From the NCBI RefSeq assembly GCF_024223415.1, contig NZ_CP100500.1: DNA of 64,000 bases; one strand, given 5' to 3'. Numbering within the stretch: the first letter of the stretch is position 1; each line of letters begins with the position of its first letter. Shown piece by piece: positions 20,610 through 55,940 of this stretch. This DNA comes from Escherichia coli. Lineage in GTDB: Bacteria > Pseudomonadota > Gammaproteobacteria > Enterobacterales > Enterobacteriaceae. The notes below the pieces were generated by a model that did not search any database, was not told where the DNA came from, and saw only the letters and a list, made by a program, of their open reading frames with translations. The position numbers and the translations under genes are program-made.

Positions 20610-20903
20610 ATGCTTAATAATAAAAAAAACCGAATCATTGATAACAGTGAACAGGTCAACAAAATAATCGAAGGCACAAACAAATTAATTAAGAAAAAAA
20701 ACAAACTAAGCCGTGAATTAATGGAACATCCGGAAGAAATATTATTAGCCATGATGCACCAGACAGAAGCGATAGCCATCGCCCTTGCCGTGCAGGCGCT
20801 TTCTGAGTTCCGGGAAGAAAACATCAGGCTGGCTCAGGAGCTGAAAAACCTCAGACGTCAGCTTCAGAGCACTGAGGCTGGCACGTCATCACGAATGCAC
20901 TGA
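20610..20903 (+). CDS. hypothetical Lys-rich coiled-coil protein
   Basis: 97-aa ORF with a good RBS (aaaggag), AT-rich. Confidence 0.5.
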   Translation: MLNNKKNRIIDNSEQVNKIIEGTNKLIKKKNKLSRELMEHPEEILLAMMHQTEAIAIALAVQALSEFREENIRLAQELKNLRRQLQSTEAGTSSRMH

Positions 20904-31613: not shown

Positions 31614-31677
31614 TTCTCCCCCTCATGTGATTCAGGCAGTTTACTCACCCCTTACAGGCCTCCTGCCATGCCCGGTG

Positions 31678-31695
31678 TTGTCGGCATTCGCTTAC
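31678..31695. promoter_or_regulatory. candidate Ogr-dependent late promoter element (TGT-N12-ACA) in the P/O divergent region
   Basis: TGTcggcattcgcttACA matches the dyad consensus described for P2/P4 late promoters, between the divergent P and O starts. Confidence 0.5.
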
Positions 31696-31767
31696 AACAA
31701 ACGCACTTTGTCTGTCCCTGCCCCGTTTTGCCATCATGAGACAAACGATCATCACGAGGGCCCGACA

Positions 31768-32604
31768 ATGCCTGAACAGAAAAAAACATCCCGTAAAACA
31801 TTCCGCGTGGCCGTTTCCGGTCCCACCGCAGACGGTCGCGAAATCAGTGCCGCAGATTTGCGCGCGGCGGCCAGTAACTTCAACCCTGAGATTTACGGCG
31901 CACGCGTGAACGTGGAGCACTGGCTTTCACCGGTTCCGTCCAGTGAATTTTCCGCCATGGGTGATGTGACGGCACTGAGCACAGAAGAAATCACCGAAGG
32001 TCCGCTGGTCGGTCGTACTGCGCTGTATGCGGAAATCGAACCCACCGACCGCATGAAAAATCTGGTCTCCCGGGGTAAGAAAATTTACTCCAGTATTGAG
32101 CTGGCACGAAATTTCACCCCTACGGGCACCCCGTATCTTATTGGCCTTGCCATGACAGACACCCCGGCAAGCATCGGCACGGAGCGTCTTCAGTTCGCCC
32201 TGCAGCAGCGCCGTTCGGTCATGACCTTCAATAATCAGCAGACGGAAGCACCGATGTTCTCTGACGCCATTGAGGCTGAAGTGATCGAACTGACGGAGCG
32301 CCGCAGCGAGGAAGGTGCGCAGTGGCTTAACCGCGTGATGAACATGATTGGGCGAGGACGCAGGGCTGACGACACCCGGTTCTCCCGCATTCATGACGCC
32401 GTTGAGGGGATAGCCTCATCGCATGCCGACCTTCTCGACCGCTTCAGTGCACTGGAATCGCGCCATCAGGCAGACAGACAGAAAATCGCCACCCTGTCCA
32501 CTGAGCTGGCAGAGCTGAAAAACAGACTGCGCGGACTGGACGCTGATCAGGAAAGTCGTTTTACGGCAACCGGCGGGCAGTCCAGACAACTGGCTGACTA
32601 CTGA
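31768..32604 (+). CDS. P2 gpO-like capsid scaffolding protein
   Basis: ORF 31627-32604; ATG at 31768 follows gaggg (MPEQKKTSRKTFRVAVSGPTADGREISAADLRAAASN...), 278 aa. Confidence 0.85.
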   Translation: MPEQKKTSRKTFRVAVSGPTADGREISAADLRAAASNFNPEIYGARVNVEHWLSPVPSSEFSAMGDVTALSTEEITEGPLVGRTALYAEIEPTDRMKNLVSRGKKIYSSIELARNFTPTGTPYLIGLAMTDTPASIGTERLQFALQQRRSVMTFNNQQTEAPMFSDAIEAEVIELTERRSEEGAQWLNRVMNMIGRGRRADDTRFSRIHDAVEGIASSHADLLDRFSALESRHQADRQKIATLSTELAELKNRLRGLDADQESRFTATGGQSRQLADY

Positions 32605-36576: not shown

Positions 36577-36721
36577 ACACCCCACCTGGGGAAATATCGG
36601 GATATGGAGCGACAGCCTCCTGGATGCACTGGAAACCTGCAACGCAGACAAACGGGCCATTGAGGCGATGGAGCGCCGGAGACTCAACCGACAGAACGGA
36701 GAGGCGCATGCTGAAAAGTAA
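36407..36721 (+). CDS. Rz1-like outer-membrane lipoprotein spanin in the +1 frame overlapping the Rz-like gene
   Basis: GTG start with RBS gaaggag; signal plus lipobox (MNSFAKLLRRMSAPALFLTTVLLTG|C) followed by a Pro-rich sequence (PLPAPSFRFIPAGLTTGTRPPPFPEHP). Confidence 0.65.
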   Translation: MNSFAKLLRRMSAPALFLTTVLLTGCANTRNAPLPAPSFRFIPAGLTTGTRPPPFPEHPTWGNIGIWSDSLLDALETCNADKRAIEAMERRRLNRQNGEAHAEK

Positions 36722-37172
36722 ATCCCTGAGCACACACATGAGTACAGCGTGCCGGTGGTGCAGGGCCAACCCGGAAAAGTTCACCGTGTTCATTGAACGT
36801 GGCGGGATAGAGACCACCGGCGAGACGCCGACGTTCGTGTACAACTACCGGCTGGTGATGTTCGTGATGGACTACACGGGCGATCTGGACAACCTGACGC
36901 TTCCACTGATTGTCTGGCTGGCAGAGAACCAGCCGCAGTTGCTGCTTAATCCTGAGCGCAACAACGATATTCAGTTCACGGCGGCCATTAACGACGACGA
37001 CAGCGCGGACGTGCTGTTTGAGCTGCCGTTACGTGAACGCGTGCGCGTCACCCGCAGGGATGACGGCACCCTCATGACAGAACATCTACCGGAGCCGAAA
37101 TCACGCATCCCGCAGGACGGCGACTGGTCACACATTCTGGAGGATGTGACGTGGAACATTGTCACCGGATAA
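36708..37172 (+). CDS. P2 gpR-like tail completion protein
   Basis: 154 aa from MLKSKSL...; the central region (VMDYTGDLDNLTLPLIVWLAENQPQLL) parallels P2 R. Confidence 0.8.
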   Translation: MLKSKSLSTHMSTACRWCRANPEKFTVFIERGGIETTGETPTFVYNYRLVMFVMDYTGDLDNLTLPLIVWLAENQPQLLLNPERNNDIQFTAAINDDDSADVLFELPLRERVRVTRRDDGTLMTEHLPEPKSRIPQDGDWSHILEDVTWNIVTG

Positions 37173-37187
37173 CACGCGGAGAATGTT

Positions 37188-37844
37188 ATGGGGAAACTGA
37201 GATACCGTAACCTCGTTCCCGCTGAAGGAATGAGTAACATGTTTGTCAATATCCGGCTGGCAACCAGCCCGCAGGCAGTGAAGCGCATTGCCGCGCATGT
37301 GGGTAAGGAGCTGCGGCGCGTGAACCAGAGCCGGATGCGCGCCCAGAAAGCGCCGGACGGTTCGGTGTGGACACGCCGTAAACGCCGTATATCACGCCTT
37401 CAGGAGCGCATCAGCTTTATCTGGCAAAACCAGAACCGCACCCTGAAAAACTGGCATCACGGTTCAGGAAAATACGGCCAGACCATCACCGGCTGGGATG
37501 AAGACCGGAGCGGCATACGTACCTTTTACCGGAGTGATATCCTCCGTTTCCTTGAAATCAGGACACGCCGCATCAACCGTGACACCACAAAAACGGTGCC
37601 GATGTTTGCGAAGCTGCGCACGGCCCGTTATCTGAAAGTGAAGGCGGACGCATCAGGTGTGACGGTGGGCTACAGCGGCGTGGCGGCACGCATTGCCCGC
37701 GTTCACCAGTTCGGGGAGCGCGACCGGGTGGCCGCAGGGATGTATACGGATTATCCGGCCCGTGAACTTCTTGGAATAACACCGGCAGATGAACGACTTA
37801 TTCAGCGTATCATTATGGACAATATCGCGAGGGCTGTGGCATGA
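37188..37844 (+). CDS. P2 gpS-like tail completion / virion morphogenesis protein
   Basis: 218 aa; MRAQKAPDGSVW... and ...IARVHQFGERDRV... blocks match gpS-family motifs, with an internal insertion relative to P2 S. Confidence 0.75.
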   Translation: MGKLRYRNLVPAEGMSNMFVNIRLATSPQAVKRIAAHVGKELRRVNQSRMRAQKAPDGSVWTRRKRRISRLQERISFIWQNQNRTLKNWHHGSGKYGQTITGWDEDRSGIRTFYRSDILRFLEIRTRRINRDTTKTVPMFAKLRTARYLKVKADASGVTVGYSGVAARIARVHQFGERDRVAAGMYTDYPARELLGITPADERLIQRIIMDNIARAVA

Positions 37845-38422
37845 ACGCGGAATTAATGCGCCTTATCAGCAACATCATCAGAACCGGCGTGATTTTCGAC
37901 GTGAACCCGCAGACCTGGGAGGTCCGGGTGCGCAGTGGCGGACTGGAGACAGGCTGGCTTCGCTGGAGCACCGCGCGGGCGGGCGCGTTCAGTGTCTGGG
38001 TGCCGCCAGCCACCGGTGAACAGGTGGCGTTCGTCTGTATCGGTGGTAATCCCGAAACCGCGATAATCATCGGCAGCCTCTGGAGCGATGATATCCCGGC
38101 ACCGGGCAGCACACTGAAGGAAATCATCATGACAGCACCGGACGGTGCGGTATTCCGCTACGATGCAGACGCCGGTGCACTGGAGGTTAAGGGGATTAAA
38201 ACAGCCAGCATTCAGGCCGACACGCGCATCACCCTGGACACGTCGGAGGTGGTGTGTACCCGCAAACTTATCACCGCCACCCTGGAGGTGCAGAACGGCG
38301 GCGAGATGCGCGGCAGCATATCCCACAGCGGCGGCAGCCTGACATCCAACGGTATCACCGTTCATACGCACACCCACGGTGGCGTCAGGACGGGCCCGGG
38401 CACCACGGGAGGCCCGCAATGA
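37841..38422 (+). CDS. P2 gpV-like baseplate spike protein
   Basis: 193 aa; start overlaps the S stop. Confidence 0.85.
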   Translation: MNAELMRLISNIIRTGVIFDVNPQTWEVRVRSGGLETGWLRWSTARAGAFSVWVPPATGEQVAFVCIGGNPETAIIIGSLWSDDIPAPGSTLKEIIMTAPDGAVFRYDADAGALEVKGIKTASIQADTRITLDTSEVVCTRKLITATLEVQNGGEMRGSISHSGGSLTSNGITVHTHTHGGVRTGPGTTGGPQ

Positions 38423-40228: not shown

Positions 40229-42463
40229 ATGAGCACGAGAAAATTCAGAACCCTTATCACCGACATCGGGCTGGCAAAGCTGGCCGCAACAACGGCGCCT
40301 GGCGGTAGACCTGTACGCCTTACGCACATGGCTGTAGGGGACGGCAATGGAGAGCTTCGTCAGCCGCAGAAAAACCAGACATCGCTTTACAATGAGGTTT
40401 GGCGCCAGTCTGTCAACCGCGTCTTCACCGACCCGGAGAACCCGAACCGCCTCATCGCCGAACTGGTCATTCCTCCTGAAACCGGCGGATTCTGGGTGCG
40501 TGAAATTGGTGTGTTTGATGATACAGGTACAATGATTGCAGTAGGAAATACCGCTGAAAGTTACAAGCCCACCAGAGAGGAAGGTTCAGGGCGGGCGCAG
40601 ATATTCCGTGCAGTAATCACCGTCACCTCCGACGCCGTGGTGGAACTGGTCATGGACACAACAACAATTCTGCCGACCACGGACTACATTGATGAGAAAA
40701 TAGCGGAACACGCACGTTCCCGTAACCACCCTGACGCGACACTGACAGAAAAAGGATTCACCCAACTGAGCAGCGCCACAAACAGCACCTCTGAAACACT
40801 GGCCGCCACACCGAAGGCCGTCAAGGCTGCATATGACCTTGCAGCCGGTAAAGCACCCGCCAGCCACACCCACCCGTGGAATCAGATAACAGGTGTGCCA
40901 TCAGCCTCGCTGACGGCAAAAGGCACCGTACAGCTGAGCAGTGCCACAAACAGTGAGTCAGAGACTGAGGCCGCCACCCCCAAAGCGGTTAAAGCCTTAC
41001 ACGATATGGTGACGAGCAAGTATACAGGACAGGATGCAACCACCGGACGCAAAGGCATCGTACAGCTGAGCAGCGCCACAAACAGCAATTCCGAAACACT
41101 GGCGGCCACACCGAAGGCAGTAAGTGATGCACTGAGCATGGCGTTCGTGAAGCCAACAACATCCCTGGGGGAAACAGACCTGAACACTCTGGGGAGTAAG
41201 GAAGACGCGGGAGATTATTACCAGCAGAGTGACTCAGGTGCGAGAACAGACAGAAACTATCCTGTAGAGAAGGCAGGAGAGTTACGCATCCGTGTTGGTG
41301 CATGGGGATTCTGCCAGCATGAATACACGAGCTGGGATCCGCCACGAAAATTTATCAGGACAGTTACCGGAAACTTTAACGGTAACGGCCCATGGTCAGA
41401 GTGGGTGGAGGTGACAAACACAGATGCAACAACTGGACGCAAAGGCATCGTACAGCTGAGCAGCGATACAAACAGCAATTCCGAAACGCTGGCGGCCACA
41501 CCAAGAGCCGTCAAGGCTGCATATGACCTTGCAGCCGGTAAAGCACCCGCCAGCCACACCCACCCGTGGAATCAGATAACAGGTGTGCCATCAGCCTCGC
41601 TGACGGCAAAAGGCACCGTACAGCTGAGCAGTGCCACAAACAGTGAGTCAGAGACTGAGGCCGCCACCCCCAAAGCGGTTAAAGCCTTACACGATATGGT
41701 GACGAGCAAGTATACAGGACAGGATGCAACCACCGGACGCAAAGGCATCGTACAGCTAAGCAGCGCCACAAACAGCAATTCCGAAACGCTGGCGGCCACA
41801 CCAAAAGCTGTTAAAGCTGCGTATGACCTTGCCAACAGCAAAGCCTCGGCAGCCCACACTCATCGCTGGGCTCAGATCACAGACGCCCCTGTTTTTTCGT
41901 CTGTTGCCCGCGTCATCATGGGTAAACAAAGCATAAAAGATATTCTTGATTACCTTGGTTTAGGAGAAGGCTCGACGCTGCCAGTTGGCGTACCCGTTCC
42001 GTGGCCTTCGTCAAGACCACCTGAGGGGTGGTTACAGTGCAACGGTGCCGCATTCACGCGTACAAAATACCCAAAACTGGCGGTGGCCTACCCTGACCTC
42101 AGGCTACCAGATTTGCGCGGGGAATTTATTCGTGGATGGGATGACCTGCGAATGATTGACAGGGGACGCTTATTGTTATCCACACAGGAAGCAACATATA
42201 TTTGTACCGCCATACAGGCGTACCACGGCGTAGCGGGAGGTGCAGATATTCAGGCAGGGATTTCATTTGCATCACATGATAACGACATCATAAACATAAC
42301 CCCTGATCAACCCAGAACCGGTAACGGCATCCTGTACGGCACAAAACCAGTTGACAGATGGGCAATAGCCAGAGCCGGTAAGCTGGTGAGTAATGAAAAA
42401 GACAGATGGATAGCGATCAGACCGCGCAATATCGCTTTTAATTATATTGTGAGGGCAGTTTAA
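40229..42463 (+). CDS. tail fiber protein (P2 gpH-like) with internal repeat modules
   Basis: 744 aa; N-terminus MSTRKFRTLITDIGLAKLAATTAPGGRPVRLTHMAVGDGNGE... is like P2 H. Six copies of the tail-fibre repeat motif (QLSSATNS..ETLAATPKAVKA) and a perfect 251-bp internal duplication. Confidence 0.88.
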   Translation: MSTRKFRTLITDIGLAKLAATTAPGGRPVRLTHMAVGDGNGELRQPQKNQTSLYNEVWRQSVNRVFTDPENPNRLIAELVIPPETGGFWVREIGVFDDTGTMIAVGNTAESYKPTREEGSGRAQIFRAVITVTSDAVVELVMDTTTILPTTDYIDEKIAEHARSRNHPDATLTEKGFTQLSSATNSTSETLAATPKAVKAAYDLAAGKAPASHTHPWNQITGVPSASLTAKGTVQLSSATNSESETEAATPKAVKALHDMVTSKYTGQDATTGRKGIVQLSSATNSNSETLAATPKAVSDALSMAFVKPTTSLGETDLNTLGSKEDAGDYYQQSDSGARTDRNYPVEKAGELRIRVGAWGFCQHEYTSWDPPRKFIRTVTGNFNGNGPWSEWVEVTNTDATTGRKGIVQLSSDTNSNSETLAATPRAVKAAYDLAAGKAPASHTHPWNQITGVPSASLTAKGTVQLSSATNSESETEAATPKAVKALHDMVTSKYTGQDATTGRKGIVQLSSATNSNSETLAATPKAVKAAYDLANSKASAAHTHRWAQITDAPVFSSVARVIMGKQSIKDILDYLGLGEGSTLPVGVPVPWPSSRPPEGWLQCNGAAFTRTKYPKLAVAYPDLRLPDLRGEFIRGWDDLRMIDRGRLLLSTQEATYICTAIQAYHGVAGGADIQAGISFASHDNDIINITPDQPRTGNGILYGTKPVDRWAIARAGKLVSNEKDRWIAIRPRNIAFNYIVRAV

Positions 42464-43074
42464 TGAGTAACACTGCAGTTCTGGATGAAAACGGTATCGC
42501 CACTTTCGCAGGCGATATCACTGTATATCACTATGATGAGGAAACCCGGGAATACACCTCATCCTCTGTGGAGTATCTGGCCCTGGGGGTGGGTACCCCG
42601 GCACATTCATGCGCCGATGCCCCGCCAGAGGCAATGCCGGGTTACGTGATTTGCCGGACGTCCACGCTGGACGGGTGGGAGTATGTCCCCGATCATCGTG
42701 GAGAGACGGTATACAGCACAGAGAACGGTAATCCGGTCCAGATTACCCAACCAGGTGACTACCCGGAAGGGACAACGACAAAACAGCCTGCCACACCATG
42801 GGATACCTGGAACGGTGAGGCGTGGGTAACCGATACAGAACGGCAGCAAGCCGAAGAGCTGGAGGTTGCCAGACAGCAACGCAAGGAACGGGTGGATCAG
42901 GCGATGAAGTCCATCGACCTCATCAACCTTAAGTTGCGGGCAGGTCGCAGTCTGACACCAGAAGAAACGGCAAAACTGAATGCCGTGCTGGATTATATCG
43001 ACGAGCTGAACGCACTGGATATCAGCACGGAGCCTGAAATAAGCTGGCCGGAAACACCACCAGAAATGGAATGA
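42463..43074 (+). CDS. tail fiber assembly chaperone (P2 gpG-like)
   Basis: 203 aa; start overlaps the H stop; MSNTAVLDENGIATFAGDITVYHYDEETREY... is typical of tail fibre assembly proteins. Confidence 0.85.
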   Translation: MSNTAVLDENGIATFAGDITVYHYDEETREYTSSSVEYLALGVGTPAHSCADAPPEAMPGYVICRTSTLDGWEYVPDHRGETVYSTENGNPVQITQPGDYPEGTTTKQPATPWDTWNGEAWVTDTERQQAEELEVARQQRKERVDQAMKSIDLINLKLRAGRSLTPEETAKLNAVLDYIDELNALDISTEPEISWPETPPEME

Positions 43075-43144: not shown

Positions 43145-43633
43145 TCACATCAGATCATTTACGCCGCTTACTGTGGTATTCCAGACCGAACTTAACTTCC
43201 CTTTCATTCCCGAAAGCATATCAGACACCGGTGACGAGGCCATACTCTCCCGCAAATCCTCATCACAGCGTTCCAGACTGACAGTGAACTCAATTTTTTT
43301 GGCCTTACCGTGGCGGTCAAGTTCGCTTCGCGTTGTGCGGACAGCCGTTATCACATACATGCCGTATATCTGCCCCACACCGTCAATCAGCGGCCATGGG
43401 CGACCAGTGTAAGCCTGCGTCGTTAAAAGGCTGAGGGAAACCTCACCGCCGGTAATTTCGGGATAAAGCACACCGGACAACGTGATCTGGTCGTCACCCG
43501 CCCCGATATACTGCCAGCTGGCCGAACGATTGATGCGTTCATTTTTAACGTGGCGCCAGGTTTTATTATGTTGCAGTTGTTGATGAGGCAGCGTACGCAA
43601 CTCAAAAACAAACATGCCGTAAATCATCATCAT
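43145..43633 (-). CDS. P2 gpU-like tail protein
   Basis: 162 aa (MMMIYGMFVFELRTLPHQQLQHNKTWRH...); last gene of the leftward sheath-tube-tape-measure block. Confidence 0.8.
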   Translation of the reverse strand: MMMIYGMFVFELRTLPHQQLQHNKTWRHVKNERINRSASWQYIGAGDDQITLSGVLYPEITGGEVSLSLLTTQAYTGRPWPLIDGVGQIYGMYVITAVRTTRSELDRHGKAKKIEFTVSLERCDEDLRESMASSPVSDMLSGMKGKLSSVWNTTVSGVNDLM

Positions 43634-43644
43634 GCGAGGTACTC

Positions 43645-46600
43645 CTAATCTCTGTCACGGAAACTACCGACTGTCTGGCGGATACGGCGTTCCATTTCCG
43701 CACGGACGGCATCACCCACCATTTTTGCCAGTTCGCGCGGGTTTTGCGTGTGAACATCATGCAGGTGAATATGCAGTTCGCCAGTTAATCCCCATGGTGC
43801 CGCCTCACTCTGGCGCGGTCGGGGCGATGCGGGGGATATGGGCTGGCGCACAGCCTCAACCACCGGACGGGATGTTGCCGCCATCACTGGTGTCATTAGC
43901 GGGGAGAACGTCGGCATGACATCGTGAGTCATAACCGGTTTGATCACCGGCGGAACCACTGGCGTAATATTACCGGACAGTACCGGACGGACGACCGGAG
44001 GAATAACCGGCACATTATTCACGGACACCACCGGCTTCACGACCGGCGACACGTTCGCCGTGGTGGATATCAGCGGCGAAACACTGACAGGCGGTGGCGC
44101 TGGCAGCGGTGGCAACGAAGGCACACTGACCGACGGCACCTGCGGCAGTCTGACAGGTGGCTCACTGACACTACCCGGTAACAGGGAAGCTGCGCGGTTA
44201 AAGCGTTCCTCCTTCCACTCACCACGAACGGCCAGCGCTTCCGGCAGGTTTTTAAAGATAATATCGCCGGGACCAGCGCGTTTTTTCGCCTGTTTCGCCT
44301 CATCCAGCAGACCACCGGTGTTATCGACGATTTTGTTCAGGCGGCGCATAGTGCCGGTATTCTCCCCCGTCAGGGGTGGTTGCCCCCCTTTGGGTTTTTC
44401 GCCGTATTTTTTATCCTCGTCCTTTTTCGGCGGATTAATGACGTTAACATCCGCCAGAAGCATGGCAGCTTTCTCGTTCAGCAACTCCTTCTGTTTTAGT
44501 TCTTCCGCTTTTTTCCGGGCGCGCTCAACCGCTGACGGAATCAGCCCGAGTTTTTCCAGCACCCGGGTTAATGAGTCAATCAGCAGCGTAACCGGACCGG
44601 TCACCAGATTGCTGATAAACTCCCCGACCTTCTGCCCGAACGTCCGCCCGGCTTCCGTGCACTTGTCCAGCTCATCCTTTGTTGTGCTTACCGGCGCGAA
44701 CAAATCCACGAACCACTGCCACACACGCCCGATTGTCTGCCCGACATACTCAAACAATGGTCCCAGTGGTGCCACAGCCTCGCGCAGTGGCGTAAGCCCC
44801 TGCCACAGGCCGGACAAGAACCCGCCCACGACAGCCTTCAGCTGGTCCCAGTGCCGCCAGATAAGCACTGCCGCACCGACCAGTGTCGCCACCACAAGGC
44901 CCACCGGACTTAACAGAAAACCCAGCGCCCCGCCAAGTGCGCCCACCGCACCACTCACCATCCCCCACAGTGCGGGCAGACCTGACAGTCTGAGCGCCAG
45001 TATTCCGATACCGCGCCCCAGTGAAATCAGTGCGCCGCCAGGTGAAGTGAACGCAGCCAGCAGACCACCACGCAGCGCGCCAAGTCCCGCCTGCACACCA
45101 CGAAGCCGCCCCGCAACTACGCCCAGCAGTGCAGCAAACCGTCCGGCACCGGAGGTGATACCGACAAACAGCACGCGCCAGCCACCGATACCGCCCAGCG
45201 GACCACCGAGTACGCCGCGCAGCTGCGTCAGTAACGGCAGCGCACGACCGAGGCCGGATGTGCCGGTCAGCAGGGCAAACCCAAGACGCAGTTTTGCCAG
45301 CGGCCCCATCAACACACCAGTGGCAAGTGACAGCGCCCCCATGGCCGCAACCGCAGCCAGCAGTACACCACCGGCAATCAGCAGTTGTTTTGTCAGTTCA
45401 GGGTGCGCCTGAGCCAGCGCGGTGACTTTCGCAATAACCCGGGTGAACGACTGCGTGACAGAACGCAGCGGCCCGTCAACGAGGTCAGCGATACGGATAC
45501 GCAGTCCTTCCCATGCGCTGTTCAGTGATTTCAGGTCACCGTCCAGGTTATCAACCATAACACGGGCAGTCTGATTAAGTTCCCCGGTGGCCAGTTCAAT
45601 CTCCTGCGTAAGACGGGGAAGATTATTTTCCCCCGCCGCAGTGACAAGATTCATCAGGGAAACATAGGACTCCTGCCCGGCAATAGCCCTGAAAAAGGAG
45701 ACCTGCGCGGCATTACCGTATTTTCGGGTGGCCTGGTACAGCTCATTCAGGATATTTTCCATCCGGCGCATGTTCCCGTAAGCATCCTGCGTCTCCACGC
45801 CAAGCTCTTTCAGTGCCATTGCAGCGGCCTTCGGCGGATCAACCAGACGTGACAGACTGGCACGCAGCGCCGTACCTGCATCACTTCCACGGATCCCCAC
45901 ACTGCCAAGGACACCCGTCATGGCTGCCGCCTGTTCAAGGGACAGGCCAAGTGAAGCTGCAACCGGCCCCGTGTACTTCATGGTTTCACCCAGCGAACGG
46001 AGATCCGTATTGGTTCGTGTGAAGGTGGCGGCCAGCGTGTCACCCACGCGATCCATCTGGTCAGCGGACAGACCAAACTGTGTGAGGATATTCGAACTGA
46101 TATCGGCAGTCTGTCCCAGGTCCATCCCTGCAGCCATTGCCAGATCAAGCACGCCGGGTAGCGCCGCCTGTATGGCCTGTGGTGTGAAGCTGGCCATGGC
46201 AAGGAACGCCTGACCGCTGGCAGCATCACCGGCGGTAAACTGCGTTTCAGAGCCCAGCTTAATGGCCTGTTCGCGCAGCGCCTTAAACTGCGGACTGTTT
46301 TTGTCAATACGGGTCAGCGCCTGGACGCGCGACATCTCCTTACCAAAACTGACCGCCGGTTGCAGGAAACGTCCGGCCGCATAGCCGCCTGCCGCCGCCG
46401 TACCAACCGCCGTAAGTCCGACCGTTTTAAGTTTTCCCGCCGTCTCCTGAGCACGGGAATATTGCTGGCGTGCCTGCGTGACACGTGCCAGCGCCTGCCG
46501 TTCGCGTTCCAGCTGGTCGTTGTATTGCTGTGTTCGCCGTATGGCCTGTTGAATGGTGTTGTCACTGCCGGAAAGCGCAATACCGTGGCGCCGCAGCTCA

Positions 46601-46956
46601 CCACCCAGTTCGCGCATTCGCTGAACTTCACGCGCACGGACCTCATTGAGACGCTCAAGTTTGAGGCTCAAATCGTTCATCAGCTTTTTCTGTTTGTCAG
46701 ACAGCACGGTTCCGGCGCGCTGAATTTGCTGAAGTGCGCTTAACTGGCGTTGCGCCCTGACAATGCCGTTTCCGGCCTTGTTTGCAGCCTCGCGGGCGCG
46801 ATCAAATGAACGGGCGTGGCGTTCCAGGTTTTTGATCGCACCCTGCGTTCTCTGTATGGAGTCGCCAAGCTGGCCCATCATGCGACGGGCGTTTTCGGTG
46901 GGACGGGTCAGCCTGTCAACAGCGCTGAAGGCGACCCGTATATCAAGCGTTTTCAT
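43645..46956 (-). CDS. tail tape measure protein (P2 gpT-like)
   Basis: ORF 43645-46992; ATG at 46956 (MKTLDIRVAF...) overlaps the predicted E' stop, giving ~1103 aa. Long helical N-terminus and Gly/Ala-rich membrane-like core typical of tape measure proteins. Confidence 0.85.
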   Translation of the reverse strand: MKTLDIRVAFSAVDRLTRPTENARRMMGQLGDSIQRTQGAIKNLERHARSFDRAREAANKAGNGIVRAQRQLSALQQIQRAGTVLSDKQKKLMNDLSLKLERLNEVRAREVQRMRELGGELRRHGIALSGSDNTIQQAIRRTQQYNDQLERERQALARVTQARQQYSRAQETAGKLKTVGLTAVGTAAAGGYAAGRFLQPAVSFGKEMSRVQALTRIDKNSPQFKALREQAIKLGSETQFTAGDAASGQAFLAMASFTPQAIQAALPGVLDLAMAAGMDLGQTADISSNILTQFGLSADQMDRVGDTLAATFTRTNTDLRSLGETMKYTGPVAASLGLSLEQAAAMTGVLGSVGIRGSDAGTALRASLSRLVDPPKAAAMALKELGVETQDAYGNMRRMENILNELYQATRKYGNAAQVSFFRAIAGQESYVSLMNLVTAAGENNLPRLTQEIELATGELNQTARVMVDNLDGDLKSLNSAWEGLRIRIADLVDGPLRSVTQSFTRVIAKVTALAQAHPELTKQLLIAGGVLLAAVAAMGALSLATGVLMGPLAKLRLGFALLTGTSGLGRALPLLTQLRGVLGGPLGGIGGWRVLFVGITSGAGRFAALLGVVAGRLRGVQAGLGALRGGLLAAFTSPGGALISLGRGIGILALRLSGLPALWGMVSGAVGALGGALGFLLSPVGLVVATLVGAAVLIWRHWDQLKAVVGGFLSGLWQGLTPLREAVAPLGPLFEYVGQTIGRVWQWFVDLFAPVSTTKDELDKCTEAGRTFGQKVGEFISNLVTGPVTLLIDSLTRVLEKLGLIPSAVERARKKAEELKQKELLNEKAAMLLADVNVINPPKKDEDKKYGEKPKGGQPPLTGENTGTMRRLNKIVDNTGGLLDEAKQAKKRAGPGDIIFKNLPEALAVRGEWKEERFNRAASLLPGSVSEPPVRLPQVPSVSVPSLPPLPAPPPVSVSPLISTTANVSPVVKPVVSVNNVPVIPPVVRPVLSGNITPVVPPVIKPVMTHDVMPTFSPLMTPVMAATSRPVVEAVRQPISPASPRPRQSEAAPWGLTGELHIHLHDVHTQNPRELAKMVGDAVRAEMERRIRQTVGSFRDRD

Positions 46957-47469
46957 GCTCTGCGTTCCCGCTGCGAAGGGCCGCCCGCTCACGCCAGGCG
47001 ACCACCTCGCCGGGATCCATCAGGAAGATTTCAGCGGGAGACCAGTTGAAAATAACGGCGATATCCGCCACAAAGTCTTCAATGTGCTCAAAGGGCACGA
47101 CGGTTATCAGCCTGCCGTCGCCGCCCCGCTCTTCCCGCCAGAGTCCTGACCGGCCAAAAAATTAACCGCCACCCCGCACAGCTGAATAAAATCAGCGGAC
47201 CCCATGCGCTTAAGCAGAACCTCGTCCAGTCGCGGCGAAGTGACGCGCGGGAGTAACTCAAACATCGCGTCCGTTTTCATGTTCAGCACGTCAAGCAGTG
47301 ACAGCCCGCGCAGTGAACCGGCCTGCTGTACAGCAGGCGTGATTTCCACATACGTGATTTTTTTGTTACCGAGCACAAGGGGCGTTTTCAGCGTCACGCC
47401 GCGCTCACTGGTCACGTCCGCCGCATCAGCACCGTCAGTAACAGGGGCAACAACCGGATTTTCTTTCAT
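46952..47469 (-). CDS. tail assembly chaperone E (47107-47469) and its -1 frameshift extension E+E' (to 46952)
   Basis: 120-aa E ORF ends at 47107. A TTTTTTG slippery heptamer (minus strand, 47155-47161) lies near its 3' end; after a -1 shift the frame runs to a TGA at 46952-46954 that overlaps the T start codon. Confidence 0.7.
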
Positions 47470-47519: not shown

Positions 47520-48038
47520 TTAACCACCAAGACCAATCGCCGAGCGCACGCGGTCCGGGAAGACGTTTTTGCCGTCCTTGCGTTCGATGTGGTTCAGTAA
47601 ATCAATCTCCAGCACCGGACGGTCGTTAATGCTGAGTTTGTAGTAGGTACTCCTGACCGCATAGGTGTGAGACGTGACCTCACCCTGTTTTGCCTCCCCC
47701 GTATCAATTTCCGTCACGCGGCCGCGAAGCTCAATTTCATACAGGTCGCTCTGCTCTTCATCGTTGTAGTACTCACCGACAAAGCGCAGCAGCGTACCGT
47801 CGATCGTGCCGCCGTACTTAAGGAACAGTTCGCGGGTCGGCCCGCCCATGGTGAAACTCGCATCCAGCGCGCCGTCATCCAGACCAAGGTCGATATTCAC
47901 CGCGCCGGCCATACCACCACCGCGATAGGCTTCCGTTTTACGGGTCAGTTTGGGGGGCGTGAAGCCGGTCACCCTGCCAATCTGGTTCACCCCGTCAGTA
48001 AACAGCGTGAACACCCTGAGATTTTTTGGTACGGCCAT
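47520..48038 (-). CDS. P2 gpFII-like tail tube protein
   Basis: 172 aa (MAVPKNLRVFTLFTDGVNQIGRVTGFTPPKLTRKTEAYRGGGM...). Confidence 0.88.
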   Translation of the reverse strand: MAVPKNLRVFTLFTDGVNQIGRVTGFTPPKLTRKTEAYRGGGMAGAVNIDLGLDDGALDASFTMGGPTRELFLKYGGTIDGTLLRFVGEYYNDEEQSDLYEIELRGRVTEIDTGEAKQGEVTSHTYAVRSTYYKLSINDRPVLEIDLLNHIERKDGKNVFPDRVRSAIGLGG

Positions 48039-49321
48039 TAAGCACCTCCAAGCGTCGCAAATGCAGGACCAAAGAATTCATCAGTAAACGTCTGGTAAAG
48101 TTCCATATCCTCAAGCGGCGGAACGGGCGTGTACTTGTAGCGGATACGCACGCGTCCCTGACGAAGTTCCGTGGTGCTGTTATCCACCACGTCATACCAG
48201 CACTCCGCACCAATGAGACGTCCTGACGTAACCAGCGCATCCAGTTTTGCGCGAATTGCGCTTAACACGTCTTTCACATTAGCAGGGGTCAGCGGGGCAT
48301 CAATCGTTTCAAACTGCGCTTCCGCAATGGAATCAGCCAGCACCTGAGCGGTTCGCGTGTACACCTCAAAGATATACGCCTTCGTTTCCGGCGTACGGTT
48401 GCCCCAGAAGCGGAAACCGTTACGGCAAATGATGGTAGTGATTTCCTTGTTGTTGAGATTGTTGGCATCGCTGTCTTCGGACTGAAGGGACCAGAACACC
48501 GGGCTGGAAATACCCAGCACATTTGTTACCGGCACGTTGGACAGCGATTTATGCCAGCCCTGTTCGTGGTCAATACGTGCACGTAAACCGCAGGCGTACG
48601 CCGCAGCCGGGAAGACCTCATTAGCGCCGGATTTCGGGTTATAGGCGATGAAGTCAGGCCAGAGCAGCATAAGTTCGCGCTCGTTAAATCTGGCGCGGTA
48701 GCTGATTGCATCAGCGGGCTTCTTGCAGTTGTGACAGCCCGCGTAGACAAATGCGCGAAGTTTTTCTGCAATTACACACAGGGATTTTGTGACAGCTTCA
48801 GTATCCAGTCCGGGAGCTGCGATGATGCGCGGACGGTAACCGATGGCATCATCCTGTTCAGCTATCAGAAGTGCATACATACCGGTATAATTACCGTCGC
48901 CATCCGTGCCACCAATGACATACTGGTCCTGCGTTTTGTGTGGGTATACAGGATGTGCATCTTCAGACTCATCAATACCAAAAAATGCCCTGTCTTCAGG
49001 ATCCAGATGACCGAATGATGTAACTCCTGTATCCGGGGCGCCCTGAGAACTGGTATCAGGAACGCGCACCACAATCACCTTCGTGCTCACCTGGTCGGCG
49101 ACAGCCTTAAGCGATTTGTAAAGCGTCCCCTTTGTGCCGGCCTTACCCAGCACATCACTGACGCGGGTCAGCAGTGTGGGTTTGTTCAGCGGGAACAGAG
49201 TTTCATCCGCGTCATCTGCCGTAGCCACAATACCAATAACACTGGAATCCACATCATTAATGGCGGTGGCAAGGCCGGTACTTTCCCTTACGCGCGCACC
49301 ATGAAAGCGTGTTTCACTCAT
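48038..49321 (-). CDS. P2 gpFI-like tail sheath protein
   Basis: ORF 48038-49468; start placed at MSETRFHGARV... (49321). Blocks ...FPLNKPTLLT...GTKGTLYKSL..., ...LRARIDHEQGWHKSLSNV..., ...RNGFRFWGNRT..., ...YTRTAQV..., ...YTPVPPLE... parallel P2 FI. Confidence 0.88.
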   Translation of the reverse strand: MSETRFHGARVRESTGLATAINDVDSSVIGIVATADDADETLFPLNKPTLLTRVSDVLGKAGTKGTLYKSLKAVADQVSTKVIVVRVPDTSSQGAPDTGVTSFGHLDPEDRAFFGIDESEDAHPVYPHKTQDQYVIGGTDGDGNYTGMYALLIAEQDDAIGYRPRIIAAPGLDTEAVTKSLCVIAEKLRAFVYAGCHNCKKPADAISYRARFNERELMLLWPDFIAYNPKSGANEVFPAAAYACGLRARIDHEQGWHKSLSNVPVTNVLGISSPVFWSLQSEDSDANNLNNKEITTIICRNGFRFWGNRTPETKAYIFEVYTRTAQVLADSIAEAQFETIDAPLTPANVKDVLSAIRAKLDALVTSGRLIGAECWYDVVDNSTTELRQGRVRIRYKYTPVPPLEDMELYQTFTDEFFGPAFATLGGA

Positions 49322-49397
49322 ATGTTTCACCCTTGTCTGGCTGGTTGATTTTGCGTAATCATTACCCACACACGCGGTAATCTCACCCCTTTGATGT

Positions 49398-49415
49398 TGT
49401 CTCCTGACAGCGACA
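49398..49415. promoter_or_regulatory. candidate Ogr-dependent late promoter dyad (TGT-N12-ACA) in the divergent FI / D intergenic region
   Basis: TGTctcctgacagcgACA, nested in a longer palindrome (tgttgtc...gacaaca); lies ~75-80 bp from both the FI and D start codons. Confidence 0.5.
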
Positions 49416-49482
49416 ACAAAACAGCCATTCAACGCCGCTGCGGTGCATGAAACCATTACAGAACGCACCAGGAGAGAACACC

Positions 49483-50574
49483 ATGAAAGAGCTGTCAGTT
49501 ACCGTTCCGTCACCGGATATCGACATCACCATCAACAACAACACACTGGCAAACCTCACAGAGCGACTCATGACGCTGACCCTGACGGATAACCGGGCCT
49601 TTGAGGCAGACCGCGTCACCCTCACCCTTGACGATACGGACGGGCAGTTACAGTTGCCACCACGTGGCGCACGCCTGAGAGTGATGATTGGCTGGCGAGG
49701 AGAATCACTGGTTAACAAGGGCACCTACGTCGTTGATGAGGTTGCGTGGGAAGGACCTCCAGATAAACTGATCATCACCGCCAGCAGCGCAGATTTTCGG
49801 GAAGAGTTCAACGTGAGGCGGGAGGTATCCTGGCACGACGTGACCGTAAAACAGGTTGTGTCAGCCATCGCTCACCGCTACGGCCTGAAGACACAGATAA
49901 GCGAAATCCTCATGGATATCGAAATTGACCACGCTGACCAGACCGAAGAGAGCGATATATCCTTCCTGACCCGCATGGCTGAAATGCTGGGTGCGATTGC
50001 CACCGTAAAAAACGGCAGCCTGTTATTCATTCTGCCGGGTGGCGGAACCGGGCCGGACGGAAGAGCCCTGCCTTCGTTCGCCATTACCCGCAGCAGCGGC
50101 GACAGTCACCGCTTTCGCATTGCTGACCGTGATGCGTATACGGGGGTCCGGGCGCACTGGCTCGATCTGAAGTTCGGGCAAAAGAAAAAAGTGAACGTGA
50201 AGCGACGCAGGGAAGCCGGGAAACAGAAACAGGAGAAGAGCAGCAGCCGGGAGGGTGATTACATGGAAGGCGCGGAAGGGAACGTCTACGTTCTGCGCAG
50301 GACTTACCAGAATGAAGAAACCGCACGACGTGCAGCTGCGGCAAAGTGGCAGGAGTTACAGCGGGGAGCAGCGGCATTCTCCATCACTCTGGCACGGGGT
50401 CGTGCCGACCTGTACCCCGAAATGCACGGCAGGGTAACAGGTTTTAAAAGCGAGGTGGACAATCAGGACTGGATTATTGCCAGGGTGGAGCACATCATAG
50501 ATGAAAGCGGCTTCACCACACAACTGGAGCTGGAAGCGAAAATCCCCGAATGGATAGCAGATTCAGGCGGATAA
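49483..50574 (+). CDS. P2 gpD-like tail protein
   Basis: ORF 49447-50574; ATG at 49483 follows aggaga. Blocks LTLTDNRAFEAD, SWHDVTV, HADQTEESDISFLTRMAEMLGAIATVKNGSLLF, ITRSSGDSHRF, GRADLYPE parallel P2 D. Confidence 0.88.
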   Translation: MKELSVTVPSPDIDITINNNTLANLTERLMTLTLTDNRAFEADRVTLTLDDTDGQLQLPPRGARLRVMIGWRGESLVNKGTYVVDEVAWEGPPDKLIITASSADFREEFNVRREVSWHDVTVKQVVSAIAHRYGLKTQISEILMDIEIDHADQTEESDISFLTRMAEMLGAIATVKNGSLLFILPGGGTGPDGRALPSFAITRSSGDSHRFRIADRDAYTGVRAHWLDLKFGQKKKVNVKRRREAGKQKQEKSSSREGDYMEGAEGNVYVLRRTYQNEETARRAAAAKWQELQRGAAAFSITLARGRADLYPEMHGRVTGFKSEVDNQDWIIARVEHIIDESGFTTQLELEAKIPEWIADSGG

Positions 50575-50617
50575 AATTAAAATGAGCCATCTCCACTCAG
50601 CCAGATAAGGAGAAGCC

Positions 50618-50869
50618 ATGTTCCGTTGTCCCCTATGCGGTGCATCCGCACGTATCCGCACCAGTCGCAATGAAAATGATTCAGGCACAGTTCGCCTGAA
50701 GTACTACCAGTGCAATAACCTCGAATGCGGGATCGGCTTTACCACACTGGAGGGTTTTAACAAATTCACATCAAAACGCGCCCCGTCGCCGCAGGGTACA
50801 GAGCGGATACCGTGGGAAGATTTTCCGGGATCTCACAGGGGGAATACTCAGATTAATCTTGATATTTAA
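50618..50869 (+). CDS. ogr: Ogr/Delta-family zinc-finger late gene activator
   Basis: 83 aa; MFRCPLCGASARIRTSRNENDSGTVRLKYYQCNNLECGIGF parallels P2 Ogr (MFHCPLC...YHQCQNVNC...) with a C4 zinc finger (C4, C7, C32, C37). Confidence 0.85.
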   Translation: MFRCPLCGASARIRTSRNENDSGTVRLKYYQCNNLECGIGFTTLEGFNKFTSKRAPSPQGTERIPWEDFPGSHRGNTQINLDI

Positions 50870-51804
50870 GAACAATAATCAGGTTGAGAGGACATCATAA
50901 GGCAAGTAGATTAACGGCAGATACTTTCCCGCAACCACGGGCAAGTATTTAATTATCCATGATGAAATATGACCTAAATTGTTTTTTGCCCGCCGGAAAG
51001 CGGGCATTTTTTTATTCTTTTGTGGTTATGGGGTCATCAGGAACCACGTGCAGATTATATTTTTGTTTTTTTGGCGTTCCTCCGGCAGCAACGAGTTCAT
51101 CAATAAGACACTGACACGCCTGAACATCCCGGGCATGTCTTAGTTTCACCTTTATTGATTTAACCTTATCCTCACCGGAGGAGAAATGCAGTTCAATCTC
51201 AATATCGTTTCTTCGGAACAATCTCATACGCCCCCTGAATATATCAGAAATACTAGTATCGAAAAATGAGAAAACAGTTAGACAGGAGAAACATATTAAC
51301 ACAAATCATTTATACCTATAGATGAAATTATAATTTCATTCATGAATATGATAGATAACTATATTGTGAACAAAATGAAAAATGGCTAAATTAAAAATGG
51401 GCATGGAGGAATGCCCGGTTATCAATATAATGTGACGTAGATCATTGTTTTGCCCGCCGGAGAGCGGGCATTTTTTTTGCGCCTGCCATCGAGGCGCCTT
51501 CCCTGGCGCACACAAAGCAGCCCTGATTTTCCATGAAAACTTCAGGGTTGAGCTGCGGGCACAAAGTGAGTAGATTAGCTACGGGTACCTCCCCCTGACA
51601 ACAGGAAGGGTGTCCATTATCCATGATATACAAACGAAAAGTCTTGTTTTTTGCCCGCCGAAGCGCGGGCATTTTTTTATGCATCAGACAAGATACAGCC
51701 CACCCCAACTGACACCTGAAATATTGCCGCAACAAAAAGAAACAGTTAAATTACGCGCGGGTGCCTTTCGGCTGATGGCCGGAGGGAAAACCTGAAGGCC
51801 GGAT

Positions 51805-52038
51805 GTGGAAAGGCCCCGGAAAACATTTCTGTTTAACCGAGGCCCTAACCGCATTACCTTGACAAGTGAAAGGTTAGCGCCTCTCCGGAAAAGGAGCAAG
51901 TGCTATGTCGCAAAAATCGCTTACGGCCATCACGTTCTGCGTGACGGCAATCCTCATCATCTGGATATTGCACGGTTCGCTGTGCGAAATACGGATGAGC
52001 TTCTGGGGAGCGGAGTTTGCGGCGTTCTTACAATGTAA
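51805..52038 (+). CDS. mok-like overlapping reading frame upstream of and overlapping the hok-like gene
   Basis: 77-aa ORF in a different frame that overlaps the Hok-like ORF, as in hok/mok/sok loci; may be regulatory rather than a stable protein. Confidence 0.35.
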   Translation: MERPRKTFLFNRGPNRITLTSERLAPLRKRSKCYVAKIAYGHHVLRDGNPHHLDIARFAVRNTDELLGSGVCGVLTM

Positions 52039-52045
52039 GAAGTAA
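51905..52045 (+). CDS. Hok/Gef-family type I toxin-like small membrane protein
   Basis: 46 aa, MSQKSLTAITFCVTAILIIWILHGSLCEIRMSFWGAEFAAFLQCKK: N-terminal transmembrane helix plus the conserved SLCEI...AAF... C-terminal pattern of Hok proteins. RBS aaaggag upstream; terminator at ~52140-52170. Confidence 0.7.
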   Translation: MSQKSLTAITFCVTAILIIWILHGSLCEIRMSFWGAEFAAFLQCKK

Positions 52046-53909
52046 GGAAACCGCGACGGGGGAGCAATCCCCCGTCAATCGGTTGCCAGGGTAAGGTCGA
52101 TAAGGCACCCTATCTCACAGACATGAACAAACAAACCCGCAGCATAAAAACTGCGGGTTTTCTTTTTGGTGTCCTCACCGACTTGAAACAGTGATCAGAC
52201 TATAAGACAAAGCCCGCAATGTTGCGGGCTTACTCTACCTCTCGAAAATGTGGTCACTGCGTGGACATACGCTGATACAAATCCTTTATATCAATAAATT
52301 AAATCTTTGTTTTTTTCATCAACAATGATTTAACCTTATCCTCACCGGAGGAGAAATGCAGTTCAATCTCAATATCGTTTCTGTGGAACAGCCTCATAAG
52401 ACAACCTCCTGAATTCATCAGAAACACAGTCAACTGAAAACCAGAAAGCAGACAAACAGTGGACACACATTAATACAAATCATTTATACCTATAGATGAA
52501 ATTGCAGTTTCATCTATAACATGACAGGTAACAATATTGTGAAAAAACTCAAAACTCGTTAGATTAAAGACGGACAGAGCAATGCTACTTTATCAATAAC
52601 ATGTAACCTGTACTTCCTTATTTTGCCCGCCGAAGCACGGGCATTTTTTTTGCGCCTGCCATCGAGGCGCCTTCCCTGGCGCACACAAAGCAGCCCTGAT
52701 TTTCCATGAAAACTTCAGGGTTGAGCCAAAAGCACAAAGACAGTAGATTAACCACGGGTGCCTTCCACCTGACAACAGGAAGGGTGTCCAGTATCAATGA
52801 CAGACAACTCACATTGCTGTTTTGCCCGCCGGAAAGCGGGCATTTTTTTATTCTTTTGTGGTTATTGGGTCATCAGGAACAACATGCAGATTATGCTTTG
52901 ATTTTTTTGGTGTTATTACAGCAGCAACGAGTTTATTAATAAGACACTGACATGCCTGAACATCCCTGACATATCATAATATCACTTTATTTTTTTAGCT
53001 TGTCCTTTCTGGAGCAGAAATATCTCAACATCGTTTCTGTGGAACAACCTCATTTGCCCTTGAATGTATCATAAATATCAGCATCGGAAAACCAACAGCA
53101 ATACAGAAGAAACATGTTAATGCAAATCACTTATACCTATAGATGAAATTACAGTTTTGTTCATAAATATGATAAGTAACTATATTGTGAATAAAATGAA
53201 AACTAGCTAAATTAAACGTGGGCATGGTGGAATGCCTCGTAATCAATAATACATGATCCGTACTTCCTTGTTTTGCCCGCCGGAAAGCGGGCATTTTTTT
53301 GGCGGTTACCATCGCCTCACCTTCCTGGTTCACATGAAGCAACCCTGATTTTCCATGAAAACTTCAGGGTTGAGACAAAAGCACAAAGACAGTAGATTAA
53401 CCACGGGTACCTTCCACCTGACAACAGGAAGGCTGTCCAGTATCAATGACAGACAACTCACATTGCTGTTTTGCCCGCCGGAAAGCGGGCTTTTTTTGGC
53501 AGTTATCATAGCCGCACCTTCCTGGCACATATGAAGCAACCCTGATTTTCCATGAAAACTTCAGGGTTGAGACAAAAGCACAAAAACAGTAGATTAACCA
53601 CGGGTGCCTGCCACCTGACAACAGGAAGGGTGTCCATTATCCATGATATACAAACGAAAAGTCTTGTCTTTTGCCCGCCAAAGCGCGGGCATTTTTTTAT
53701 GCATCAGACAAGATACAGCCCACCCCAACTGACACCTGAAATATTGCCGCAACAAAAAGAAACGGGTGCCTTTCGGCTGATGGCCGGAGGGAAAACCTGA
53801 AGGCCGGATGTGGAAAGGCCCCGGAAAACATCTGTGTTTAACCGAGGCCTGACCCTTCCTACCGTGACAAGTGGAAGGTTAGCGCCTCTTTGTAAAAGGA
53901 GCAAGCGCT

Positions 53910-54050
53910 ATACCGCAAAAAACGATTATTGTTGGCATTTTATGCCTGACAATAACCCTGGTCATCTGGATGGTCCACGATTCGTTATGTGAATTCAGCT
54001 TTGATATCTGGGGAGCGCGTTTTGCGGCGTTCTTGCAGTGTAAACCGTAA
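53910..54050 (+). pseudogene. second Hok-family copy with a non-canonical start (ATA in place of ATG)
   Basis: Same frame and context as the first copy (...ggagcaagcgctATAccg...) giving (I)PQKTIIVGILCLTITLVIWMVHDSLCEFSFDIWGARFAAFLQCKP; ~60% identical to copy 1. The upstream mok-like ORF (53810-53992) is present. Confidence 0.5.
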
Positions 54051-54583
54051 GAAACCGCAGCGGGGGAGAAATTCCCCGCTATCCGGTTGTTGGGGTGGGC
54101 CGATATGGCGCCCTTTCCCTGTAGAGACAAAACAAAAAACCAGATTTGCCCGCCATTGAGAGGGCTTTTTTGTCACCCTCACCAGTGAGGGCATCATCAT
54201 TCAGAGGCGCGTAAGCCACCCGGCGTTAACATCCTGCCTGTCAACCCTGGCCGCAGAGTCTGAACGGCAGGTACCGGAAGGAGTACCAAAAACATCCCTG
54301 ACAAGTTCCGCCACCTTCCCGATATCATCAGGTGTCACATTCCTCACCTCGGCAGTGATCCGTGGCGTACCATCATCGTTAACAAGAGTGGCTTTAAAGC
54401 TGGTGCGAAGGGAAAACAACATCAACATCCCCTCCCTTTGGTTCGTTGCACTGACGGCACGACACCATCAGGAAAAAGAAAAGCCCACAACGTCAGTATT
54501 GTGGACTTTTTTCTTCAAAGATGGACATTATCTGGACACATGAAAATAAAATCCATTTATTTTCATATAGTTAAGTACCATGC

Positions 54584-54606
54584 AAAAGCGCCCGCAGGCG
54601 CTTTTT
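54584..54606 (-). terminator. serS rho-independent terminator (contains the attR core)
   Basis: aaaaGCGCCcgcaGGCGCttttt immediately downstream of the serS stop on the minus strand. Confidence 0.75.
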
Positions 54607-54626
54607 AGATTCAGAAAAATTAGGTA

Positions 54627-55940
<1,314 letters not shown>

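Follow-up and report, generated by a model that had tools for sequence, protein, structure and literature searches.

The 161-bp spacer between the divergent tail genes FI and D of a P2-like prophage is probably a bidirectional, activator-dependent late control region, a reading to which we give a probability of roughly three in four. One predicted binding dyad for the late activator Ogr would lie between two promoters, PF and PD, that face away from each other. The prophage, recognized by gene calls and Pfam, is carried in the window, the 64-kb stretch of Escherichia coli DNA analyzed here. A single Ogr dyad for both directions had been put forward in the original prediction and is supported, at the level of sequence, by conserved dyad arms, by conserved hexamers and by a spacing that matches P2. 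From these features we infer Ogr binding at the dyad, Ogr dependence of both promoters and the exact positions at which they start.

The proposal gives P2-like prophages of a widespread group a concrete promoter map, and describes how a genome inversion could be absorbed by reuse of a symmetric activator site. It would account for expression of D after loss of the F operon promoter and suggests that the late regulon of this prophage needs only two Ogr sites. Such a map could be used in annotation and in the engineering of P2/P4-type delivery systems.

Gene order around the FI/D spacer

FI is the first gene of an inverted FI-FII-E-T-U operon, with FII and the GpU gene downstream on the same strand, and D diverges from it across the spacer at 49322-49482 (Table 1). 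Late morphogenetic genes thus occupy both flanks, FI with FII, E, T and U on one side and the GPD hub on the other. The gene for the cognate activator of the Ogr/Delta family lies just downstream of D, and its product is 41.5% identical to P2 Ogr over 53 amino acids. In P2, U lies upstream of D on the same strand; relative to that arrangement the FI-to-U block of the window is inverted, which makes FI and D diverge from the 161-bp spacer. The separation of D from the F operon, which the original prediction mentions, agrees with this order, and the arrangement is not peculiar to this phage, since it recurs in five genera.

The same prophage is carried by 30 of 5426 complete E. coli genomes, and P88-like phages were the sole megablast matches, with ~78% identity over FI/FII. 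Divergent FI and D genes are found in P88, P88_4B11, Shae_phiSM (Xuanwuvirus) and 500465-2 (Gemsvirus), and a GenBank phage protein search added SEN5 (Senquatrovirus), Kp4847-1 (Reipivirus) and Kp4860-2 (Reginaelenavirus), which brings the genera with this order to the five named here. When IMG/VR was scanned with the D protein, FI lay divergently upstream of D at every one of the 80 loci recovered (80/80). The hosts of these relatives are E. coli, Citrobacter, Klebsiella and Salmonella. In the GenBank record of Shae_phiSM (L003) the gene labels are shifted, such that the sheath gene (4467-5651) is called 'late control gene D protein' and gene D (5809-6918) 'ogr/Delta-like zinc finger family protein'.

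Table 1. Genes, predicted control elements and invariant alignment columns of the prophage, in window coordinates
Feature	Position	Strand	Remarks
Q	28807-29862	minus	
P	29862-31613	minus	
PP -10, TAAACT	31643-31638	minus	
Second 6+6 dyad	31676-31699	none	common to the divergent P and O promoters; layout as in the P2 pP/pO annotation
PO TG and hexamer CATCAT	31729-31730 (TG), 31732-31737 (hexamer)	plus	
O	31768-32604	plus	
R	36624-37172	plus	
S	37188-37844	plus	
V	37841-38422	plus	
G	42463-43074	plus	end of the plus-strand late block
U	43145-43633	minus	GpU by Pfam
T	43645-46992	minus	
FII (tail tube)	47520-48038	minus	Pfam
FI (tail sheath)	48038-49321	minus	Pfam Phage_sheath_1, Gp18_domIII_N, sheath_1C
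Invariant A, T, A, T	49358, 49359, 49361, 49362		read as FI-strand -10 nATnAT (A2, T3, A5, T6)
Predicted PF -10, AATGAT	49358-49363	minus	43.5 bp from dyad centre; predicted start near 49351
PF -35-like GTGAGA	49381-49386	minus	17 bp upstream of -10; weak (4/6)
Invariant CA, with T nearly invariant	49384-49385 (CA), 49383 (T)		plus-strand TCA, TGA core of the PF -35-like GTGAGA
Predicted Ogr-binding dyad, TGTTGT-N12-ACAACA	49395-49418	none	centre 49406.5; common to the FI and D promoters
Invariant G, T, T	49396, 49398, 49400		dyad left arm
Invariant ACAAC	49413-49417		dyad right arm
Invariant TG, A, T	49448-49449, 49452, 49456		D-strand TG and hexamer positions 2 and 6
Predicted PD extended -10	49448-49456	plus	TG 49448-49449, one base, AACCAT 49451-49456
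D ribosome-binding site, GGAG	49471-49474	plus	8 nt before D ATG; conserved GGAG/GGGAGG block
D (baseplate hub, Phage_GPD)	49483-50574	plus	Pfam PF05954, E = 1.2e-16
Predicted -10 of ogr's own promoter, TAAAAT	50578-50583	plus	D-ogr gap, just after D stop
ogr (Ogr/Delta zinc-finger late activator)	50618-50869	plus	Pfam PF04606, E = 4.9e-14, above cut-off
Terminator-like hairpin and T-run	50987-51016	plus	ends the D-ogr unit

The dyad, its flanking hexamers and their conservation

A pattern scan of the spacer returned TGTCTCCTGACAGCGACA at 49398-49415 as its sole TGT-N12-ACA, as had been predicted. This minimal motif is not enriched, with 12 occurrences in the 64-kb window against 16.6 ± 3.8 expected, and the 3+3 motif of the original prediction is therefore weak evidence when taken alone. 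The longer form is rare: the perfect 6+6 dyad TGTTGT-N12-ACAACA occurs twice in 64 kb, GTTGT-N12-ACAAC occurs exactly twice against 0.06 expected, and one mismatch in the 12-base pattern returns the same two sites and nothing more (0.29 expected). The prophage has just two spacers between divergent late genes, and each holds one of these dyads. Within 49322-49482 no second dyad appears when two mismatches are allowed, which leaves exactly one activator-type site between FI and D. Published motifs are TGT-N12-ACA for P2-like phages (PMC3931495) and TGTTGT-N13-ACAACA for phiRSY1 (PMC5694545); the 6+6 dyad of the window agrees with this P2-family motif and resembles the P2 PF site.

From the dyad centre it is 85.5 bp to the FI ATG and 76.5 bp to the D ATG, in agreement with the distances originally given. 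Two coordinates of the original prediction needed correction by one base: the FI start codon occupies 49319-49321 on the minus strand, with 49321 and not 49322 as its first base, and the second minimal dyad, which is indeed present in the P/O region, lies at 31679-31696 and not at 31678-31695. Leaders of 20-30 nt had been assumed, and the promoter elements described below predict leaders of 30 nt for FI and 20 nt for D.

Candidate promoter elements are found on either side of the dyad. The PF core, GTGAGA-17-AATGAT, matches 8 of the 12 positions of the sigma-70 consensus. On the D side, the PD hexamer AACCAT is weak (3/6 relative to TATAAT) and lies 44.5 bp from the dyad centre with a predicted start near 49463, and its -35 zone shows no conservation among the spacers compared. 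No consensus sigma-70 promoter (at least 9/12) was found in the FI/D spacer, nor in the P/O spacer, as expected for activator-dependent promoters. The elements predict starts at 49351 and 49463, 112 bp apart, relative to which the dyad would be centred at about -55.5 (PF) and -56.5 (PD).

The start of D was assigned to the ATG that is common to all lineages and follows the conserved GGAG, at 49483 in the window. An upstream ATG at 49447, taken from the ORF list, has no ribosome-binding site, and for a start of this type the equivalent TG is out of frame or then followed by a stop in 7-8 of the 11 lineages. Since the D-side TG does not form an in-frame D start in most lineages, its conservation does not derive from coding. 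ORFs annotated within the spacers of P88 (33155-33286) and SEN5 (20707-20859) were likewise set aside, being unconserved and embedded in a pattern of conservation that is not codon-like. A terminator-like hairpin on the minus strand (49439-49420) was also rejected: it has 6 pairs, is unconserved and has no transcript in its direction.

To assess conservation, we compared 56 distinct FI/D spacers, which represent five Peduoviridae genera and no fewer than seven lineages, and aligned 11 lineage representatives, whose mean identity is 58%. All of these spacers are homologous, and counts over them are not counts of independent events. The 56 spacers keep few elements, namely the dyad arms at fixed spacing, an nAnnnT hexamer on each side, the D-side TG and the ribosome-binding sites. 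Among the 11 representatives, almost all invariant columns fall on promoter or dyad elements (Table 1), with four isolated columns elsewhere. Between the dyad arms the length of 12 bp is fixed and the sequence varies. The left arm contains T(G/C)T, which reads TGT in some lineages and TCT in others, P88 included; with TCT in most relatives, the dyad is imperfect there.

Spacing was examined with the sequences anchored on the dyad and no gaps introduced. An nAnnnT begins at column 56 or 57, ~43.5-45 bp from the centre, on both sides in 11 of 11 lineages, and at any other offset in at most 3 of 11. All 56 distinct spacers carry the hexamer at that offset on both sides, and 55 of them carry the D-side TG; by itself, nAnnnT has a chance of ~1 in 8 in a test that admits two offsets. 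A small negative control came from three unidirectional promoters, P2 PF, P2 PV and SEN5 PV: none of them (0/3) has such a hexamer on the other side of its dyad.

Precedents and competing readings

The four hexamers of the window, those of PP, PO, PF and PD, fall in columns equivalent to those of P2, and PO and PD carry TG at an identical distance from their own dyads. P88, Kp4847-1, Kp4860-2 and SEN5 have the same hexamer placement in all four directions. For P2 and 186, the promoter facts used here are RefSeq feature annotations. In the P2 record (NC_001895) each of the P, O, V and F operons has an annotated start, and the activator-binding sites are annotated as well; the hexamers TAGCCT (PP), GAAACT (PO), CAATCT (PV) and GAAAAT (PF) occupy columns 56-62 and the annotated starts columns 68-70.

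P2 pP/pO has the layout proposed for FI/D, one dyad between two divergent late operons. A single feature, 'activator binding site; pO, pP promoters' (3057-3087), lies between starts at 3016 and 3127; these are 111 bp apart, compared with the 112 bp predicted for FI/D, and the dyad centre is at -55.5 for both. Both regions have weak nAnnnT -10 elements (43.5 bp from the centre in P2) and no good -35. They differ in the genes served, which at P2 pP/pO are P/Q and the O operon (head and packaging), and in the site itself, since P2 sites are imperfect (TGT-N12-CCA at pP/pO) whereas the FI/D site of the window is a perfect 6+6 dyad. In addition, the P2 starts were mapped experimentally, whereas those of FI/D are predicted. 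A comparable case is phage 186, where one B-protein site (NC_001317, protein_bind 3798-3817), annotated for 'activation of pV and p12 promoters', reads GTTGT...CCA and is the single site for two divergent late promoters, as predicted in the window. The activator there is B, of the same Ogr/Delta family, instead of Ogr, and the genes are head genes. In 186, D presumably remains in an F-type operon.

The counterpart of PF is P2 pF, a unidirectional promoter of the FI-FII-E-T-U-D operon that is homologous to it. The distal arm and the next bases are alike (TTGTGCTGTC in P2, TTGTCGCTGTC in the window), the hexamer has the same offset, and both promoters drive FI. The P2 pF dyad has no -10-like hexamer on its opposite side, and D comes last in the F operon; in the window, by contrast, the FI-U genes are inverted, and the far side of the dyad carries a separate promoter predicted for D.

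In Smp131, the same dyad coordinates have been assigned to PP' and PO' (PMC3931495). Late promoters are not discussed in the P88 paper or in the paper on phiSM, the Citrobacter rodentium relative, and we found no paper describing a shared FI/D site in P88-like phages in a search whose scope lay outside the classical P2 promoter papers. Given the P2 and 186 precedents, what is proposed for FI/D is a second occurrence of the P/O architecture; the design itself was known already, and current understanding of late-gene control is left unchanged. Class I sites common to divergent promoters, such as those of CRP-dependent pairs in E. coli, are likewise symmetric and used both ways. The CRP pairs involve an unrelated activator family and centre-to-start distances of about -61.5 and longer, compared with about -55 in the window.

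The main rival to this reading, unlikely but deserving of weight, holds that the dyad serves PF only, as in P2, and that an extended -10 promoter independent of Ogr, be it constitutive, early or otherwise regulated, transcribes D together with ogr, the symmetric placement of the dyad being a by-product of the inversion by which PF came to lie beside D. Extended -10 promoters can function without a -35 element or an activator, and the retention of TG two bases upstream of the hexamer in 55 of 56 spacers, together with the unconserved -35 zone of PD, would fit such a promoter. What an Ogr-independent PD leaves unexplained is why hexamer and dyad centre stay 43.5-44.5 bp apart in all lineages although the bases between them vary almost freely. 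The TG and hexamer also recur at the same offset in PO of the same phage, which belongs to a P2-type pP/pO pair, and the PD hexamer is poor (3/6). Moreover, D encodes a structural tail protein needed only late, and with a conserved -10 of its own upstream of ogr (see below) an early D promoter would not be needed for Ogr synthesis.

Two other readings do without a late promoter in the spacer or without a late activator at the dyad. D might be reached by read-through from the O-to-G operon across U-to-FI in antisense, or from a promoter inside FI. A simple scan found no strong plus-strand terminator from the end of G (43074) to the spacer, and the spacer has no consensus promoter, both of which would suit this possibility; we nevertheless consider it very improbable, because transcription would have to run antisense for 6 kb and collide with that of the highly expressed F operon, and because the TG, A2 and T6 conserved at a set offset from the dyad would go unexplained; in P88-type relatives, moreover, an invertase and additional genes intervene between G and U. 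A palindrome arisen by chance, or a site for another protein (Cox, C repressor or IHF) unrelated to late activation, seems to us to have a close to negligible probability. The chance frequency of the minimal motif would agree with it, but the perfect 12-base form is confined to the two divergent late spacers, its arms are kept across genera while the sequence between them is free, and it matches the P2-family motif and the P2 PF site as set out above; a chance origin is already contradicted by this conservation.

Late regulon, ogr and accompanying features

Under the preferred reading, in which one Ogr dyad serves both FI and D, ogr would be made first from its own promoter, and Ogr would then bind the two dyads and activate PP/PO and PF/PD. 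At the single FI/D dyad it would activate two weak, outward-facing promoters, of which PF on the minus strand would drive FI-FII-E-T-U and PD on the plus strand would drive D and, by read-through, ogr. Late activation in P2 needs the C-terminal domain of the RNA polymerase alpha subunit, and by analogy activation here may proceed through the alpha subunit.

Tentatively, and at somewhat less than even odds, we suggest that a latent capacity for transcription in both directions may reside in every late promoter, given that the Ogr site is a true dyad. On this view the inversion would have left D facing the back of PF, where D needed only a correctly spaced -10 to come under Ogr control, and the outcome would be a late regulon of two sites and four operons with a shared node that feeds back positively on Ogr.

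A separate PV promoter was considered and rejected, since S overlaps V by ATGA (37841-37844) and leaves no PV spacer. Between 33.4 and 49.4 kb no dyad was found with up to two mismatches, and the prophage has only two good Ogr-type dyads. With the S/V overlap and no further dyad, the late regulon appears to rest on two bidirectional nodes, compared with three sites in P2. Under the same tentative view, the FI-U inversion would have taken place in the ancestor of the P88-like genera, and V would have been fused to the O operon. P88 likewise lacks a PV spacer and has only two such dyads, and SEN5 keeps a PV-like region. This PV region of SEN5 (L087, 9260-9330) nearly duplicates its PD region (20787-20860), with the dyad followed by GCGTTGTT..GCGCGCGCG; the likeness suggests that late promoters are copied or homogenized within a genome.

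Upstream of ogr, a TAnAAT hexamer in the D-ogr gap is invariant in 11 sequences across all lineages and is probably the -10 element of ogr's own promoter. Were ogr made only from PD, a chicken-and-egg problem would arise, which the conserved TAnAAT -10 removes. In 500465-2 (L004, 6919-8252) D and ogr are separated by an inserted 1-kb gene that reads in the opposite direction, and ogr keeps an upstream TAGAAT and a ribosome-binding site despite the insertion. The gap measures 43 bp in the window compared with 81 bp in P2. The terminator scan predicted nothing on the plus strand in the D-ogr gap and one hairpin beyond ogr (Table 1), so PD transcripts probably include ogr; in P2, too, the annotation makes the terminator downstream of ogr the endpoint for both the ogr transcript and the F operon. 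With no terminator between D and ogr, a shared FI/D node would also give positive feedback on Ogr.

The arm variants of the P/O and FI/D dyads agree within each of five genomes. The left arms at P/O and FI/D, respectively, are TGTTGT and TGTTGT in the window, TGTTCT and CGTTCT in P88, AGGTCT and CGGTCT in Kp4847-1, and GGTTGT and GGTTGT in Kp4860-2; the right arms in SEN5 are ACAAAG and ACAATG. The idea that these variants track Ogr specificity was discarded: the relative L008 has the same first 55 Ogr residues as the window, yet its left arm is CGTTCT, which points to a tolerated G/C difference and not to a specificity switch.

In 13 of 25 late-promoter directions, the stretch separating the -35 zone from the -10 contains an alternating purine-pyrimidine tract at least 8 nt long, compared with 5.3% of 25-nt background windows. 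The tract is at 49358-49367 in the PF spacer of the window, and falls within dyad-anchored columns 34-58 of late promoters in L005, L086, L087, L088 and L089. The tract is often (CG)3-5, as in SEN5 PD (CATGCGCGCGCGCGTG), P88 PD (CGCACGCACATGCG) and the PF of the window (CGCGTGTGTG). Runs of at least three CG occur in 9 of 25 directions against a background of 1-2%, counts that are not independent, the promoters being homologous. The tract might be a functional, supercoil-sensitive part of late activation.

Downstream of ogr, the region 50985-54200 is a mosaic of diverged direct repeats. It holds nine copies of the hairpin TTTGCCCGCCGGAAAGCGGGCATTTTTTT, modules of 40-230 nt that are each present 2-5 times, and three or more paralogous starts of a small ORF on the minus strand (MRLFRRNDIEIELHFSS...). 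The mosaic has no Rfam or Pfam match, and an Rfam search over 49000-54800 returned none. Identical TGT-N12-ACA 18-mers at 52785 and 53434 belong to the repeats of the mosaic and are not Ogr sites. In P88, the corresponding place is occupied by a hok/gef gene.
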